NCBI GenBank assembly: GCA_034660555.1
Contig: JAYEJL010000083.1
Span: forward strand, 1 to 12,838
Source of the DNA: Thermotogota bacterium
Lineage (GTDB): Bacteria; Thermotogota; Thermotogae; Petrotogales; Kosmotogaceae
Length of the DNA stretch: 12,838 nucleotides
Direction: 5' to 3'
Within the stretch, counting starts at the first letter, position 1; every line of letters begins with the position of its first letter. The notes beneath the pieces were generated by a model that was given only the letters and a program-made list of their open reading frames with translations, ran no database searches and had not been told where the DNA came from. Below, one piece after another: positions 1-12,838 of the stretch. A program made the position numbers and the translations under genes.

Positions 1-71
1 GGGGAGACTGGACTTGAACCAGCGACCTCCTGTGCCCAAGACAGGCGCGCTGCCATCTGCGCTACTCCCCG
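1..71 (-). tRNA. tRNA-Pro (anticodon TGG), 3' end truncated by window edge
   Basis: Reverse complement reads CGGGGAGTAGCGCAGATGGCAGCGCGCCTGT-CTTGGGC-ACAGG-AGGTC-GCTGGTTCAAGTCCAGT-CTCCCC. It has a 5' C typical of tRNA-Pro, acceptor stem GGGGAG/CTCCCC, anticodon stem CCTGT/ACAGG with TGG, and T-loop TTCAAGT. Confidence 0.97.
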
Positions 72-5198: not shown

Positions 5199-5570
5199 GA
5201 TGCTAAATCAACTTACTTTAGCAACTGTAATTTATAAATACTGTATAAAAAAAGAAACTTTTTGCTTGAAGTAGCAAAGATGTTGGCATAATAACGTATC
5301 CTTCTTAATACAAAACGCCATAAAGCCTTAAATAAAGCATGTTTCGAGTTTTTTTACTAAGTACACTTACAACTAATTATTAGTACAATTATTATTTTAT
5401 GGCACTTATAAAAGAGCATTATATAAAACTTAACGAAAATAAGTATTTATCTTTGAAATACCAATGATGACACACTATTTTGCAAAATACCCAATGAACA
5501 TTAGTGAAGATTCCCATTTGATGCTATTTATGATAAACTCTAGCAAAATATTTATTTGGAGGTCAATATA

Positions 5571-5738
5571 ATGCAATTAATTATCTTATTTCTTGCAATT
5601 ATTGGCGCAATTGTAATGCTTTCTTTGACATTAAGTGTAGCAGCCTGTCTTTTACGAGTAATCTTTGGATTACTATTTATAGGTTTAGCAATTTTCAGCG
5701 TTATATGGCTACTTACAGCCATTTTAGCCGTATTTTAA
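5571..5738 (+). CDS. 55-aa small integral membrane protein (two predicted TM helices)
   Basis: GGAGGT (5558-5563) lies 7 nt before ATG 5571. MQLIILFLAIIGAIVMLSLTLSVAACLLRVIFGLLFIGLAIFSVIWLLTAILAVF is almost entirely hydrophobic. Own terminator downstream. Confidence 0.75.
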   Translation: MQLIILFLAIIGAIVMLSLTLSVAACLLRVIFGLLFIGLAIFSVIWLLTAILAVF

Positions 5739-5795: not shown

Positions 5796-5830
5796 AAATG
5801 CCACTGCTAAAGTGGCATTTATTGTTTTTT
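5796..5830 (+). terminator. Rho-independent terminator candidate
   Basis: AAATGCCACT-GCTAA-AGTGGCATTT (perfect 10-bp stem) then ATTGTTTTTT. A smaller hairpin TGCCTT-ATC-AAGGCA lies at 5769-5783. Confidence 0.75.
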
Positions 5831-5953
5831 GACACCCTTCATATTTCTATTCACTTTAAGGATTAACTCCAATAGTTCAGACCACCGTAGATGCATATCA
5901 GTGTTGTAAGAACTTTATCGGTTTCTTGTTTTCAATAGGTTTTTGTTGATTCT

Positions 5954-5994
5954 CGTTTTTAAAATTCCTTCCTTGAGGAAGGTCCCTGCGAAGC
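5954..5994 (+). repeat. REP-like double-hairpin unit A (truncated)
   Basis: CGTTTTTAAAAT-T-CCTTCC TTGA GGAAGG-TC-CCTGCGAAGC; first 12 and last 10 nt identical to 6260-6300. Confidence 0.7.
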
Positions 5995-6051
5995 GCATAT
6001 CCGATTGCCTCCCAAATCGCACATCAATGGGTTTTGCTCCAGTCGATGGAC
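5994..6051 (+). repeat. 58-bp direct repeat, copy 1
   Basis: 56/58 identical to 6529-6586 (differences at 6009/6544 and 6022/6557). Confidence 0.95.
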
Positions 6052-6068
6052 GATGTTCTTGAATCTAT

Positions 6069-6145
6069 CGGTTCACGGTAAACGGTTCACGTGTTCTAGT
6101 ATTTATGGTATTTCTCTCGGATTCTCCCCTTCTCGGACTCTCGTT
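6069..6145. repeat. Short tandem heptamer and octamer repeats
   Basis: CGGTTCA-CGGTAAA-CGGTTCA-CG (6069-6091) and CTCTCGGA-TTCTCCCC-TTCTCGGA-CTCTCGTT (6114-6145). Confidence 0.7.
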
Positions 6146-6191
6146 TTGCATTTTTTGAACTTTGCGTACAACGTTTTTTGGCTTTAAAATT

Positions 6192-6382
6192 CACACACCC
6201 AGCCTCCGGCAGCCCTCTCTAGAGGGCATTCAAAAACACCTAATCCCGTTATCAGAAAGCGTTTTTAAAATCTCCCCTTACGAGGGGAGTCCTGCGAAGC
6301 AGGGAGGGGTGTCAGGTTTTTGAATTACACATCTAAACATTCCGCCTTTGAGAGCGGGGGGATCACTCGCAGTGGTGAGTGT
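6192..6382. repeat. Cluster of three REP-like double-hairpin units: B 6192-6237 (-), C 6260-6313 (+), D 6339-6382 (+, degenerate)
   Basis: B(-) GTTTTTGAAT-GCCCTCT AG AGAGGGC-T-GCC GGA GGC-TGGGTGTG. C GTTTTTAAAAT-CTCCCCT TACG AGGGGAG-T-CCTGC GAA GCAGG-GAGGGGTGTC. D ATT-CCGC CTTTGAGA GCGG-GGG-ATCACT CGC AGTGGT-GAGTGT. Confidence 0.7.
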
Positions 6383-6437
6383 TATTTTGCTCTTACTAAA
6401 CCCCATCATATCCCAGATCCTAAAACGATTTTTTATT

Positions 6438-6561
6438 CCTTTATCCGCCAAAGGCGCATATCCGAATTGTTTCTCAAATTCGTATATCCTGCTGTCCCTC
6501 AAGCAGCATATCCGTGTGTACCCCAACACGCATATCCGATTGCTTCCCAAATCGCATATCA
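6438..6561. repeat. Tandem array of near-constant GCATATCC linkers alternating with sequence-variable hairpins
   Basis: Linkers at 6456, 6482 (GTATATCC), 6506, 6530 and 6554 (GCATATCA). Inserts GAATT-GTTTCTCA-AATTC, TGCT-GTCCCTCA-AGCA, GTGT-GTACCCCA-ACAC, GATT-GCTTCCCA-AATC. Preceded by hairpin CCTTT-ATCCGCC-AAAGG. Confidence 0.9.
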
Positions 6562-6586
6562 ATGGGTTTTGCTCCAGTCGATGGAC
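6529..6586 (+). repeat. 58-bp direct repeat, copy 2
   Basis: 56/58 identical to 5994-6051, offset 535 bp. Confidence 0.95.
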
Positions 6587-6648
6587 CAAGCTTGCTACCA
6601 GCAAGCGTTAGACGAAACGAAGTGATGGACGAAGCGCTAGCGCTGGAC
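6580..6648. repeat. GNTRGAC linker/hairpin chain
   Basis: GATGGAC (6580), GTTAGAC (6607), GATGGAC (6624), GCTGGAC (6642), separated by CAA/GAA plus hairpins GCTTGCT-ACC-AGCAAGC, AC-GAA-GT and GC-GCTA-GC. Confidence 0.65.
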
Positions 6649-7392
6649 GTTATTTAGGTTTTCCATATTAAACTCATGTATCTTCGCATTTTTTCCCTGT
6701 CTGTACTTCTCATCGTTACCGCTTATTACTGCATTAATATAATCCAGGTGATCCTCTACACTCTTTCTGTCAATATCTCTGTTATGCGATGAAAGTAAAA
6801 CGTCAAAGTACATTTTCAGATAGCCTTCCAGGGTTTCTTTAAACCTTTCCAGATTATTCCACTGAAGCATTGGTAGCGGTATTTCTGTGTTGTCACCAAC
6901 AAACAGCACTTTGTCTTTTTCATCGTATATACTCAATGAATCAACTGTATGACCTGGTGAGTAAAATAACTTAAGTTCTTCCCCGGGGAAACTCAAAGTC
7001 TCCTTAAAAAGTATATCTGGAAGAATAATTTCAACTTCTCCATCAGCAAATTCTGGCTTTTCCTTTAAGCGCTTCCTTTCATTTATATCAAGCAGTTCAT
7101 AGCACTTTTCATGTGCTACAACTATTCTGTTGTCAAAGAGGCATATACCCCAAGTATGATCATAATGAGAATGGGTGTATATAATGAATAGCGGCCTGTC
7201 GGGCAATTCTTTTTTAATAAAATCCCTTACTTCAGCGATGGTTTCAGGTCCGGTGAGCGTATCAATTAGAAAATTGAATTTTTCTCCACGAATTACATAA
7301 ACGCTTACAATAAAATCATCATTCTCGAGAGTGAATAAAGTACCCCTGCTTCCGATCTCTTCTTTTTTTAGCATTTGCGAGTTGTTATTCAT
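6637..7392 (-). CDS. MBL-fold metallo-hydrolase
   Basis: LIDT, THSHYDHTWG (HxHxDH), SPGHT, LFVGD and SSH motifs. Confidence 0.92.
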   Translation of the reverse strand: MNNNSQMLKKEEIGSRGTLFTLENDDFIVSVYVIRGEKFNFLIDTLTGPETIAEVRDFIKKELPDRPLFIIYTHSHYDHTWGICLFDNRIVVAHEKCYELLDINERKRLKEKPEFADGEVEIILPDILFKETLSFPGEELKLFYSPGHTVDSLSIYDEKDKVLFVGDNTEIPLPMLQWNNLERFKETLEGYLKMYFDVLLSSHNRDIDRKSVEDHLDYINAVISGNDEKYRQGKNAKIHEFNMENLNNVQR

Positions 7393-7427: not shown

Positions 7428-7931
7428 TTATACAATCTTATCTTCATAACGTGCAAGCAAATAAAGAAGATCAGAGAGTTTGTTTATATATTTGAGTAAA
7501 TTTTCTGAAATATCTTCATCTCGACTCAAAGATACTATGCGTCTTTCCGCTCTCCTTGCAATTGTTCTGCAAATGTCTATAGAAGCTGAGTGTGCTGTCA
7601 ACCCTGGAACAACGAAGCCCTTCAAATCAATTTTTGTCTCATAATAGCTAATTTGATTTTTCATACTCTCTATATCTTCCTTGTTAATTAATTTGCCCTT
7701 TTTGTTATTTTTGGATGCCAATTCTGATGAAACTTTAAACAAATCCTTTTGAATATTATGAATAGCATTCTTGACAACAGCAGAAGCGCATTCATGTTTT
7801 GCTTTTCCCAGAAAAGAATTAAGTTCATCAACGGTTCCATAGGATTCAACCCTTAAATCATCTTTGAAAACCTCTTCGCCTGACCATAAGCTTGTTTTCC
7901 CTTTGTCTCCTCTACCTGTAGATATACTCAT
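7428..7931 (-). CDS. pduO: PduO-type ATP:cob(I)alamin adenosyltransferase
   Basis: STGRGDKGKTSL, KDDLRVESYGTVDELNS, CRTIARRAERR, YINKLSDLLY. Start placed at ATG 7931 because GAGGTGA lies just upstream (ORF track extends to 7961). Confidence 0.9.
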   Translation of the reverse strand: MSISTGRGDKGKTSLWSGEEVFKDDLRVESYGTVDELNSFLGKAKHECASAVVKNAIHNIQKDLFKVSSELASKNNKKGKLINKEDIESMKNQISYYETKIDLKGFVVPGLTAHSASIDICRTIARRAERRIVSLSRDEDISENLLKYINKLSDLLYLLARYEDKIV

Positions 7932-7993
7932 TAATATCACCTCACAAATATAATCTGTCATGGTATGAACTCACACTTTAAAAAACTGTAGAA

Positions 7994-8527
7994 TCACATT
8001 TCTATACCTTTTCTGGCGATGATTCCTTTCTTGTAGTAATGTTTTATTTCTCGCATTTCCGTTACCAAATCAGCTTCATTGATAAGCCTATCCGAAGCGC
8101 TTCTGCCGGTAAGTATCAGTTCCATTCCATCAGGTTTCCTTTTCATAATTTCTATAACCGTATCTTCACTAATAAGATGAAAAAGTACCGATGTGATTAT
8201 TTCATCCGCTACAAGAATATCGCATTCTTTCTGGTCCATTAATTCCTTTACCCTTGTTATGGCTCTTTTTGCTTGATCAACAAACTTTGAATCAGGCGGA
8301 TCAGTTATCCTACAAAACTCTTTGTCTCCATATTGTTCGATGTGAATGCGACCTCTGAGCTTCTTAACTGAATCAAGTTCACTGTAATGCTGGCCTTTCA
8401 TGAACTGAACAATATTTGTTTTTAATTCTACCCCGGCAGCTCTCAACGCAAGACCCAAAGCAGCTGTCGTTTTCCCTTTTCCATTTCCGGTATAGATATG
8501 AGTATAACCCCTACCAATTTCCGACAT
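7994..8527 (-). CDS. cobO: CobA/BtuR/CobO-type cob(I)yrinic acid a,c-diamide adenosyltransferase
   Basis: YTGNGKGKTTAALGLALRAAG P-loop, VQFMKG, ADEI, ELILTGR, ADLVTEMREIKH, ARKGIE. RBS AAGGAG. Confidence 0.93.
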   Translation of the reverse strand: MSEIGRGYTHIYTGNGKGKTTAALGLALRAAGVELKTNIVQFMKGQHYSELDSVKKLRGRIHIEQYGDKEFCRITDPPDSKFVDQAKRAITRVKELMDQKECDILVADEIITSVLFHLISEDTVIEIMKRKPDGMELILTGRSASDRLINEADLVTEMREIKHYYKKGIIARKGIEM

Positions 8528-8845: not shown

Positions 8846-9987
8846 ATGAATTACAGAACACTGGGCAAATCAAATATAAAAGCAGGAATTATCGGGCTTG
8901 GTACTGAACATCTTGAGAAAGCCGACAGAAATACAATTGCTTCCATAGTTGACCTTGCAATCGAAAACGAGATAAATTATATCGATCTACTCTTAGCCGA
9001 TCCTGATTTCAGGGATAACTTTGGTTATGCTTTTAAAGGCAAAAAAGATAAAGTGCTTATCGCAGGCCATCTTAGTGCTTTATATGTTGATGGACAATAT
9101 GTTCGTTCCAAGGATGTTAAGAAATCTGAAGAGTTTTTCTATGACATGCTGAAAAGATTTGGAACGGATTATGTTGATGCTCTTATGATTCACTTTGTTG
9201 ATGAAGAGGATGACTTCGAAAGAACCTTTGGAGATAACGGATTATATGAACTCGCTCTTAGACTAAAAAAAAAGAAGGAAGAACCAGACTCATTGGGATG
9301 AGTAGCCACAAAGTTCCTGTTTCAAAAAATGCTGTAGAAAATGATTTGATAGACGTGCTCATGTTCCCCATAAACCCTGCTTTTGATTTAACAGCTGGTG
9401 ATGAAGGACTTGACACTTTGTGGAAAGATGAACCATACGCAAAAGACGGTAAATTAACCCCTGAATCTTCAAGAAGGCTTTTACAGAAGTTGTGTGCTAG
9501 AAAACAGGTTTCGCTTGTTGCGATGAAGGTTTACGCTGCCGGCTGGTTATTCTGGAAAGAAAATCCAAGTTCCATTGTTCTCAATCCCACTCAATGTTTA
9601 CATTATGCCCTGTCACAACCTGGAGTCACCACCACGGTACCTGGATGCTAAACCACAAATGAGCTAAAAGCAGCCATCAAATATCTTATTGCAACAGATG
9701 AGGAAAAGGATTTTTCAAAGATCAACACAAATCCCGCATGGAATATAAAGGGTAGTTGTATGTACTGTAACCATTGTTTACCCTGTCCGGTAAACATAGA
9801 TATCGTAAGAGTAAACAGAATTCTTGACCTTGCCTATGAAGATATTTCACCTTATGCGATAAAAGAATATAAAGAGCTTGAAGTAAAACCAGATAAATGT
9901 ATTGAATGCAAAGTGTGTGAACAAAGATGTACATTTGATGTACCCGTTGTGCAAAAAATGAAGGAAGCATCAAAGCTTTTCAGTTAA
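8846..9987 (+). pseudogene. Aldo/keto reductase with C-terminal 4Fe-4S dicluster domain, disrupted by a frameshift and an in-frame stop
   Basis: MNYRTLGKS..IGLG, NYID, GTDYVDALMIH. Frameshift in the A9 run (9265-9273); the shifted frame reads EGRTRLIGMSSH. In-frame TAA at 9649-9651, then the same frame continues TTNELKAAIKY...CMYCNHCLPCP...CIECKVCEQRC. Confidence 0.88.
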
Positions 9988-12046: not shown

Positions 12047-12524
12047 ATATCAGTAACGCATAATTTATGCGCCTTCACCTCCTCATTTACCTTCAACATA
12101 TCAATCACATAATTCATTAAAAAAGTTGTTTTTCCGATTTTACCATAAACATATAAGTTCGAATCATTTTACCAAACAGAAACTACTTTTGTGTTTTTCG
12201 CTTGTGAACCTTAGTAGTTGGAAATATTACGAGAAACCATTTATCTGTTATTAAAAAAACAAACTGAAAATCATCCGTATGAAGAGATCTGATAGATTTT
12301 TTCAGAATTTCTGAATTTTCATACACAATTTGAGCTTTCATTATTAAATTTTACTCATGAAAATATAATTTTATAAATATTCTTCAATTTTTTTATTTGT
12401 TCTATAATTCTTATTTTCCTTTCATAATTGTTTATATTTGGTGTTTACAGACACTTTTTCTTGTTTTGTTATCATTCTTTTCTTGAATTTTATCAATTAT
12501 TTTATAATTGTCTTCACTTTTTAC

Positions 12525-12553
12525 TTGACTTTATTGAATTAAAAGTGTATATT
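12525..12553 (+). promoter_or_regulatory. sigma70-type promoter for the small ORFs
   Basis: TTGACT (12525-12530), 17-bp spacer, TATATT (12548-12553). Inverted arms CACTTTT (12515-12521) / AAAAGTG (12541-12547) bracket the -35. Confidence 0.65.
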
Positions 12554-12591
12554 ATAAATAGAAATCAACGAAATGTTTAGGAGGGGTTGAA

Positions 12592-12699
12592 ATGTTCAAA
12601 AGAAAATTTAGAAATTACAGCAACATCGAAAGAATTATTGAGTCTCAGAAAGAAAAAGTTTATTCAGATCTCCTCATCAATGTAAGACCTTCAGTGTAA
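12592..12699 (+). CDS. 35-aa small protein (not in ORF track)
   Basis: AGGAGG (12579-12584) 7 nt before ATG. MFKRKFRNYSNIERIIESQKEKVYSDLLINVRPSV. Promoter directly upstream. Confidence 0.7.
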   Translation: MFKRKFRNYSNIERIIESQKEKVYSDLLINVRPSV

Positions 12700-12728
12700 C
12701 GAGCCTTTTAAAAAGGGGGGGTTGCAAT

Positions 12729-12827
12729 ATAAAAGAAAGAGAAAAGAAGATCCATTTCAAGGAAGTAGATAATATTTTGGAAACAACAAGAATTGATACG
12801 CTTAAAAGAATTCACATTTACAGGTAA
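12729..12827 (+). other. 32-codon paralog-like ORF with non-canonical ATA start (possible microprotein or decayed copy)
   Basis: (I/M)KEREKKIHFKEVDNILETTRIDTLKRIHIYR. Preceded by AGGGGGGGTTGCAAT, similar to AGGAGGGGTTGAAAT before the first peptide. Confidence 0.4.
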
Positions 12828-12838
12828 AAGGTAAAACT

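Follow-up and report, generated by a model that had tools for sequence, protein, structure and literature searches.

The window analysed here is the 12,838-nt contig JAYEJL010000083.1 (contig C83) of a Thermotogota bacterium from the family Kosmotogaceae, whose assembly (GCA_034660555.1) comprises 2.1 Mb in 188 contigs at 36% G+C. It contains an array in which short constant linkers alternate with small hairpins of differing sequence. We conclude that this array is very probably one copy of a genus-wide family of dispersed extragenic DNA repeats, similar to repetitive extragenic palindromic (REP) sequences and to bacterial interspersed mosaic elements (BIMEs), and that it is not a dedicated regulatory RNA. 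The repeated unit is a mini-hairpin of 4-6 bp closed between successive GCWWATCC linkers, and units follow one another head to tail, usually three to an element. Whole hairpin cassettes have been exchanged, gained and lost among the elements, a pattern that may reflect recombination at the linkers, and polar mosaics, which are built of at least eight module types in one orientation and turn over fast at a given locus, include the array as one of their modules. A fuller account would combine this REP/BIME-like dispersal, the shuffled cassettes and the polar mosaic with mobilisation by an enzyme resembling the REP-associated tyrosine transposases (RAYTs); taken as a whole, we hold it to be only slightly likelier right than wrong.

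An earlier note on this stretch, made from its sequence alone, had offered two readings, in one of which the array belongs, as a module, to a dispersed DNA repeat that gains or shuffles hairpin units. This reading has held up: dozens of copies occur in all five genomes of the genus, with two to four units per copy and with the cassettes in many different orders.

Anatomy and covariation of the linker-hairpin unit

The core of the array (6456-6561, plus strand) consists of five 8-nt linkers and four hairpin cassettes. The linkers, GCATATCC, GTATATCC, GCATATCC, GCATATCC and GCATATCA, start at positions 6456, 6482, 6506, 6530 and 6554 and follow one another at periods of 26, 24, 24 and 24 nt. The cassettes between them are, from 5' to 3', GAATTGTTTCTCAAATTC ('e', 6464-6481), TGCTGTCCCTCAAGCA ('h', 6490-6505), GTGTGTACCCCAACAC ('k', 6514-6529) and GATTGCTTCCCAAATC ('l', 6538-6553), all on the plus strand. 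Each of the four inserts forms a perfect stem of 4-5 bp that is lengthened by the final C of the linker before it and the initial G of the linker after it. The periods given in the earlier note, and its description of four different inserts that pair perfectly and are extended by a C-G pair from the linkers, agree with the sequence in full. The 5' end of the array (6442-6455, plus strand) is formed by a partial linker, TATCC (6442-6446), and by an additional, fifth mini-hairpin, GCCAAAGGC (6447-6455), not listed in the earlier note. At the other end, the terminal linker has A instead of C as its last base and is followed by the 3' tail ATGGGTTTT (6562-6570, plus strand).

We found that the array stretch is more stable than dinucleotide shuffles, both as DNA (z = -3.7) and as RNA (z = -4.0 for the plus strand and -3.1 for the minus strand). 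Tandem Repeats Finder did not report the array, because its units are too dissimilar. Independently assembled Logan contigs of the public run X1, which is probably the source sample, cover 6299-6559 with zero base differences; their sole gap, of 3 bases, lies at 6404, upstream of the array. In the Logan contigs of X1 and of three further runs (X2, X3 and X5), depth is higher and contigs break at the repeat modules, and as the 'joints' seen there stem from other repeat copies, these contigs provide no usable evidence on unit-number polymorphism.

To describe the family we collected 69 distinct elements, 21 from the window's own genome and the rest from 60 loci of four congeners; the congener loci were chosen from BLAST matches to the window's own array, and the set is therefore biased towards window-like units. 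An element starts with a T-rich stretch, followed by (T)ATCC and a first mini-hairpin, which in other copies is GCGAAGC, GACGAAGTC or GCCGTAGGC, all with triloops of the G-N-A type. The oligonucleotide d(GCGAAGC) is a classic, very stable mini-hairpin. In the body of the element, full linkers alternate with hairpins, the consensus of the unit being GCATATCC-stem-loop-stem-GCATATC[CA], and the end is GCWWATCA-NNGGTTTT, a T-rich junction of this type following the last linker in most copies. Three hairpins stand between recognised full linkers in 50 of the 69 elements, two in 14 and four in five, and the window's copy is among these five longest elements. Of 198 inner linkers, 190 end in C, whereas 62 of 69 terminal linkers end in A. 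Terminal linkers, which have no hairpin after them, thus mostly lack the C, as fits its role in a C-G closing pair.

Perfect Watson-Crick stems of at least 5 bp, the linker C-G pair included, were found in 140 of the 198 units, as against 0.8 expected from shuffling. Covariation was assessed in an alignment (A1) of 86 distinct 32-nt units belonging to the 16-nt hairpin class. In this alignment 90.8% of helix cells are paired, compared with 75.5% in shuffles, and 122 cells are changed on both sides, compared with 35.6 +/- 5.2 in shuffles, none of 500 of which reached 122. The covariation score is 0.376, while registers slid by one to three columns score at most 0.041. The signal is confined to three pairs (columns 9-24, 10-23 and 11-22), and pair 10-23 has the composition AU 23, CG 20, GC 19 and UA 18; the loop (G-YTYCYC-A) and the T-A pair beneath it are near-constant. 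The earlier claim that structure is conserved across differing sequences is thus supported by covariation, but the strength of this signal needs to be interpreted cautiously, as the stems fall into only about five to eight classes (GATT, GTGT, TGCT, GCCT, ACCT and others) and represent few independent compensatory events.

Mismatches in the stems show no strand asymmetry, nine being G.T and 11 A.C. There is accordingly no sign of selection on one RNA strand, which is what would be expected of a constraint at the level of DNA. RNAfold additionally draws an outer ATAT/ATAT pairing between successive linkers. We rejected this pairing as structure and did not count it, because A/T variation at linker position 4 is uncompensated (21-23 of the 86 cells are unpaired).

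When hairpin classes are defined by stem and length, the 69 elements display 54 cassette orders, in which the alternatives are slot-specific. The slot before the last linker is occupied mainly by GATT, GCCT or ACCT hairpins, the middle slot by TGCT, TGAGC, TGATC or GTGT hairpins, and the first slot by GAGC-GCA-GCTC, GAATC, ATGCC, GAGCT or GAATT hairpins; the GTGT hairpin was found in each of the three slots. The window's copy, with the order e-h-k-l, is a four-slot variant, joining units that are known elsewhere as e-i-k, a-h-k, b-k-l and c-h-l. At one orthologous locus (L009) only a remnant of the array is present, consisting of the complement of a terminal linker and a short GCGCC stub, and at locus L065 one unit stands in tandem duplicate. 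The 54 orders, the remnant and the duplicate together indicate that cassettes are exchanged, lost and gained at the constant linkers.

Dispersal of the family and the mosaic around the array

A 241-nt query around the array yielded 26 matches in the window's own genome and 15-31 in each of the four congeners, together with single weak matches in two of 26 other relatives. The pattern of the array far exceeds chance. A stricter query, made up of three linkers and two intervening gaps of 9-18 nt, matched 15 times in the window's own genome and 30, 18, 18 and 17 times in the other genomes of the genus, once in a sister-genus genome (G006) and not at all in 145 other Thermotogota genomes; the reversed pattern, used as a control, had no match in any genome searched, the window's own included. 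A covariance model (R1) built on the 32-nt unit detected, at E-values up to 0.01, 19-34 units in each genus genome and none in 20 genomes from other genera of Kosmotogaceae. Both lines of search had been suggested in the earlier note: the periodic linker arrays prove to be present throughout the genus, and three stem pairs of the unit covary strongly.

The lone array in G006, a complete genome of another genus, is located near 183.95 kb of contig C1 (about 1503-1590 of locus L007). It has the same design, with linkers GCATATCC, GCTTATCC and GCAAATCC and three different hairpins, and its occurrence in another genus indicates that the family is older than its expansion in this one. Viral contigs contained 48 three-linker loci, all of them ordinary tandem repeats with unit stems of at most 4 bp; these were rejected as relatives of the array, since no unit stem reaches 5 bp.

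In the window as a whole, Rfam reports only a tRNA above its gathering threshold, and at permissive thresholds the best match in 5850-6700 scores 20.9 bits against a threshold of 56.4. Nor did full-text literature searches on extragenic repeats and RAYTs of Thermotogota, Kosmotoga and Mesotoga yield a description of the linker-hairpin array; they led only to a survey of CGTC REPs (PMC3733652) and to a paper on a REP-finding tool (PMC12306157), which includes Mesotoga prima among its organisms. The element had earlier been called undescribed. This is true of the particular family and is to be restricted to it, because mosaic repeats of the REP/BIME-like kind are already known.

Around the array, roughly 700 nt (5955-6655) consist almost entirely of dispersed modules of at least eight types. 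They include double hairpins, tracts of the short words TGGAC/GACG, GGTTCACG, CTCTCGG, ACAAC and AACCC, and a CACACCC...GAGGGCATT module; a T-rich junction is found at the end of every module, and all of those described here are on the plus strand. Near the start of this mosaic, 535 nt upstream of the array, lies a second, minimal copy of the element with one hairpin (5965-6035), comprising the hairpin TTCCTTCCTTGAGGAAGG, TCCCTGCGAAGC, a linker (5995-6002), an 'l' cassette (6003-6018), the terminal linker GCACATCA (6019-6026) and a tail; 5994-6051 and 6529-6586 are 97% identical. The run of other dispersed modules that follows (6036-6232) contains a short TGGAC module (6036-6055), GGTTCACG words (6067-6095), CTCTCGG words (6114-6144), an ACAAC remnant (6156-6174) and the CACACCC...GAGGGCATT module (6190-6230), which have 4-19 further copies apiece in the genome. 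Two double-hairpin modules (6272-6312 and 6340-6382) belong to the next part (6260-6436), as does an AACCC-word module (6397-6435) that stands before the array, likewise in several other copies. Beyond the array, a word-and-hairpin module of TGGAC/GACG type (6571-6655) covers the stop codon and the last four codons of a gene for a protein of the metallo-beta-lactamase (MBL) fold. The reverse complement of this module shows CGTC-tagged palindromes such as AAGCTTGCT..AGCAAGCGTT.

Comparison of the genome with itself revealed 92 regions that recur at least five times elsewhere in it, amounting to about 12 kb. Of these regions, 32 lie no more than 300 nt from a contig end, and the real total must therefore be higher. 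The mosaics are strongly polar, in that 225 neighbouring pairs of modules are co-oriented and only four opposed, and the order of the modules is variable. Sixteen of 20 arrays in this genome are situated outside every open reading frame (ORF) of 80 aa or more, and the other four are inside ORFs composed of repeat sequence. Relative to the upstream gene, arrays are on the same strand in nine cases and on the opposite strand in seven; relative to the downstream gene the numbers are seven and nine. Mosaics are located between tandem genes (18), convergent genes (7) and divergent genes (1), so that convergent gaps are in excess (7 of 26, against a background of 11%; P about 0.02). The neighbouring genes in four mosaic-rich contigs are diverse housekeeping and accessory genes, with no recurrent mobile gene among them.

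The MBL-fold (Lactamase_B) gene next to the array (6637-7392, minus strand) receives its final residues and its stop codon from a repeat module. In the window (6637-6655) and at two orthologous loci (L009 and L010), NVQR and the stop are encoded by the TGGAC/GACG module; in a third ortholog (L011), RREKK and the stop come from a different module. The protein has 251 aa whichever repeat module encodes its C-terminus. Beyond the gene end the four orthologous loci carry differing modules, which indicates a fast turnover of the mosaics.

Mobilisation, transcription and alternative readings

We suggest that the element may spread, or be processed, as single-stranded DNA, and that its hairpins may be retained for this reason. 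Under this proposal, a single-copy RAYT-like transposase of the HUH/Y1 type encoded by the host would recognise hairpin and linker, and by cutting and rejoining at the linkers it would give rise both to the shuffling of cassettes and to the pile-up of modules on the same strand. Where the repeats are transcribed from an adjacent gene, in this window the MBL-fold gene on the minus strand, the hairpins would give the transcript a structured 3' end as a by-product. The G-N-A triloops, the symmetric mismatches and the stacking of modules on one strand fit a mechanism based on single-stranded DNA but do not prove it. The link between repeats and enzyme is circumstantial, and we regard mobilisation or processing by a RAYT-like enzyme as possible, if doubtful. 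A bolder version, in which an HUH/Y1 enzyme cuts and rejoins single-stranded DNA at every GCWWATCC linker and hairpins are swapped like the cassettes of a gene-less integron, strikes us as very unlikely; if true, combinatorial strings of hairpins would serve as addressable sites of binding or processing, and this mode of REP evolution would be one not described before.

The genome has one PF01797 (Y1) gene (contig C87:11445-12170; 1468-2193 of locus L012). It scores 61.5 bits against the NCBIfam model REP_Tyr_transpos (NF047646) and 22.5 bits against IS200, its HUH and Tyr motifs are retained, and it has mosaics on both sides. Every congener has one intact RAYT-like homologue of 235-241 aa. 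In a sister genus (g5), the RAYT-like gene is situated between copies of a hairpin repeat belonging to that genome, and the flank of the gene has 88 matches in the complete genome G016; this is the classical REP-RAYT arrangement of a transposase gene with its own repeat. Since g5 has an abundant repeat of its own, mosaic repeats are family-wide, and their sequences are genus-specific. The g5 repeat (L015 2239-2560 in G016; also L014) has the core GAGATCCCGTAT...ATTACGGGATGAC and word tracts such as GGTGAGAGGTTAGAGG.

The Y1 gene of the window's genome has 74-75% identity to the g5 homologues and only 58-62% to those of the congeners, so that it may be a different paralogue or may have been transferred. 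A motif, TAGGGACAGACYCYATTTT, precedes the start codon of the RAYT-like gene by about 25-40 nt in all Kosmotogaceae genera examined, sometimes doubled (loci L014, L015, L018-L022 and L115), and could be an operator or a promoter element. In the window's genome it occurs at C87:11122 and once at C184, there with no adjoining RAYT-like gene. The conserved motif GGGACAGAC is found directly upstream of the RAYT-like gene in other genomes; it is not a dispersed repeat in the window's own genome, where a search gave six loose matches only.

Several observations weigh against the view of the array as a REP/BIME-like repeat moved by a RAYT-like enzyme, in addition to the biased choice of congener loci and the small number of stem classes given above. 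The NCBIfam scores of the RAYT-like genes (61.5-69.6 bits) are under the curated cut-off of 80, and in the window's own genome the gene is interrupted after residue 133 by an in-frame TAG, beyond which the frame extends for about 107 further codons. In three congeners (G001, G002 and G004) there is no module within about 1-1.5 kb of the RAYT-like gene, and in the fourth (G003) modules are present solely upstream, about 370-820 nt off. In the window's own genome the mosaic separates the RAYT-like gene from the GGGACAGAC motif, and the repeats may therefore merely have inserted there. Among high-scoring segment pairs of 100-700 nt with 90% or more identity, none includes an ATATCC array; recent mobility is thus not shown, as near-identical copies at different loci are lacking. 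A mechanism acting on single-stranded DNA of the lagging strand might have given a bias in GC skew or gene strand, and neither was seen, on contigs that are short: among mosaic regions with sufficient flanking sequence, the strand of the element has positive skew in 15 and negative skew in 19, and the majority of flanking genes is on the strand of the mosaic in 17 of 35 regions.

The remaining points of this kind concern classical REPs and their inverted doublets (REPINs), which were surveyed by Di Nocera et al. (2013; PMC3733652). The units of the array lack the GTAG or CGTC tag given there, GTAG occurring in the family solely as one loop variant of the first mini-hairpin. They all run head to tail with a common linker, whereas REPs form inverted dimers, and although constant linkers are present as in BIMEs, unit orientation never alternates. 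With no tag and with shared linkers between head-to-tail units, the array fails two defining features of REPs and REPINs and one of BIMEs.

A rather unlikely alternative, but the strongest of those we weighed, dispenses with a dedicated transposase altogether. Spread and shuffling would need no more than slippage during replication, gene conversion and recombination at the 8-nt linkers, and the host would tolerate the repeats or use them as DNA structure, for example as sites for gyrase or a nucleoid protein or as barriers between transcription units. This would agree with the three of four congeners that have no repeats beside the RAYT-like gene, and with the CGTC REPs of Kosmotoga olearia, for which Di Nocera et al. 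(PMC3733652) found no linked transposase. The remnant at L009 resembles the outcome of a deletion from linker to linker, and the tandem duplicate unit in L065 and the enrichment of mosaics between convergent genes also speak for it. Slippage and conversion can explain changes of units within arrays, but not the seeding of dozens of unlinked loci; they leave the stacking of module types in one orientation (225 pairs against four) unexplained, and the RAYT-like gene of g5 does stand between copies of its own repeat.

Arrays might instead act chiefly as RNA, in the form of 3' tails or small RNAs that block 3'-5' exonucleases or bind proteins multivalently. Both strands do fold well as RNA by the z-scores given above, the MBL-fold gene has the start of the mosaic within its final codons, and on the minus strand no terminator-like site was found between the stop codon of this gene and the array; REPs have also been reported as stabilisers of mRNA in the available text of PMC3733652. 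Nevertheless, we judge a chiefly RNA-based role improbable. The orientation of arrays to genes is random (nine against seven upstream, seven against nine downstream), G.T and A.C mismatches are alike in frequency (nine and 11), no promoter-like site is present in 5850-6650, Rfam gives no match, and the orthologous locus does not conserve the module content. Arrays may have a passive role in read-through transcripts, such as those of the MBL-fold gene, whose 3' tail they would structure.

The other reading in the earlier note, that the minus strand is a sponge RNA of the CsrB/RsmZ type which titrates CsrA by means of GGA triplets, has next to no probability. Its premises were counted correctly: the minus strand of 6411-6547 has ten GGA and the plus strand none, and five of the ten are linker-type GGATA sites (GGAUAUGC), outside loops, where the note had itself placed many of them. 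The sponge idea fails because CsrA was not found in any of 25 Kosmotogaceae genomes; PF02599 was detected neither in the window's own genome, which is 95.5% complete, nor in 24 others, several of them complete, and the same search was positive in E. coli, B. subtilis and Thermotoga maritima. The position of half the GGA in linkers and the occurrence of dozens of copies, in either orientation to neighbouring genes, are further points against it. Just as negligible is the idea that the array codes for a peptide repeat or for part of a gene: three ORFs, those of 101-108 aa among them, cover it (6278-6604, minus strand; 6320-6625 and 6348-6611, plus strand) and many periods are of 24 or 21 nt, but none of these ORFs has a Pfam match at E-values up to 0.1, unit periods of 17-27 nt (multiples of three in 123 of 198) disrupt the frame in most elements, in line with the argument made earlier from the frame-breaking period, conservation tracks base pairing instead of codons, and the modules are bounded by T-rich junctions and stop codons.

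The rest of the window contains a number of features apart from the mosaic. A hydrophobic ORF of 60 aa with no Pfam match (5556-5738) is followed by a strong terminator-like hairpin of 10 bp with a T-run (5796-5830), and it is this predicted terminator, rather than the mosaic, that ends the plus-strand transcription unit. Adjacent to one another at 7428-8527 are two corrinoid adenosyltransferase genes, one of the PduO type (PF01923) and one of the CobA/BtuR type (PF02572). At 8846-9651 there are two ORFs on the same strand (151 and 117 aa) with a 4-nt overlap, and for the first of them the match to an aldo/keto reductase profile is limited to the N-terminal 121 of its 291 positions; the pair may represent a reductase gene that is split or frameshifted. 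Positions 12340-12838, at the window's end, fall in a different repeat, which measures about 500-660 nt and is also present at C7:5088-5744 and C114:1-659 (91-95% identity), and a 22-nt tandem repeat is found at 12456-12503. A tRNA gene (1-71, minus strand) is truncated by the start of the window.

Comparison with known repeat systems

The array shares several properties with the REPs, BIMEs and REPINs of E. coli and Pseudomonas, which go with RAYT (TnpA-REP) Y1 transposases and were surveyed in PMC3733652, namely short imperfect palindromes, tens of extragenic copies, mosaics with constant non-palindromic motifs and a preference for the 3' ends of genes. A single-copy IS200-like Y1 gene whose best NCBIfam match is a REP-associated transposase adds a likeness to REP-RAYT systems; a difference is that the repeats flank the RAYT-like gene in only one of the five genus genomes and are found solely upstream of it in one more. 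A further difference from REPs is that the stems of the array are merely 4-6 bp long and that alternative hairpins are swapped between slots.

The same source describes, in its available text, CGTC-3 REPs with no linked transposase in Kosmotoga olearia and Mesotoga prima (PMC3733652), which belong to the same bacterial family as the organism studied here. On its reverse strand, the TGGAC/GACG module has CGTC and a stem of 9-10 bp starting with AA, and from the description in that text we infer that this module (6571-6655) is the published CGTC-3 REP. The array proper is distinct from CGTC-3: it is a separate module, its linker is not the same and its stems are much shorter.

The array differs from CRISPR arrays in two respects: the constant part of the array has 8 nt, compared with repeats of 23 nt or more, and its 'spacers' are not unique but palindromes of few classes that recur at many loci. 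As in CsrB and RsmZ, many GGA lie on one strand, in and between small hairpins, but CsrA was found in 0 of 25 Kosmotogaceae genomes, and the array exists in dozens of copies with neither a promoter nor a terminator of its own. The BOX elements of Streptococcus pneumoniae, with the structure boxA-boxB(n)-boxC, have in common with the array fixed 5' and 3' modules, a variable number of internal units, intergenic dispersal and stable folding. In BOX the boxB copies resemble one another, but the internal units of the array vary in stem sequence and are exchanged combinatorially, and the two have no sequence similarity. In the mosaics of Neisseria, dRS3 repeats bound variable RS units of 50-150 bp, so that there, too, a short constant repeat alternates with variable units in large intergenic mosaics that vary among strains. 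The constant part in Neisseria (dRS3) is palindromic; here it has 8 nt and it is the variable part that forms the hairpin. Clustered CGTC-1 elements of Neisseria are also interleaved with other repeat families, according to the available text of PMC3733652.

From these comparisons, the best reading of the array is a REP/BIME-like repeat of an unusual form, with units arranged head to tail and linkers shared. With 69 copies, three covarying pairs and 54 orders it is a clear case of hairpins being conserved while their sequences are swapped, and dispersed repeats of this sort have scarcely been described so far in the phylum. As the mosaics break assemblies and rewrite the last codons of neighbouring genes, they are also relevant to the annotation of metagenome-assembled genomes in this group. 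The design of shared linkers and head-to-tail units, combined with strict co-orientation, demands a generating mechanism that is strand-specific, and in this the array departs from the classical REPIN model of inverted dimers, which supplies none.

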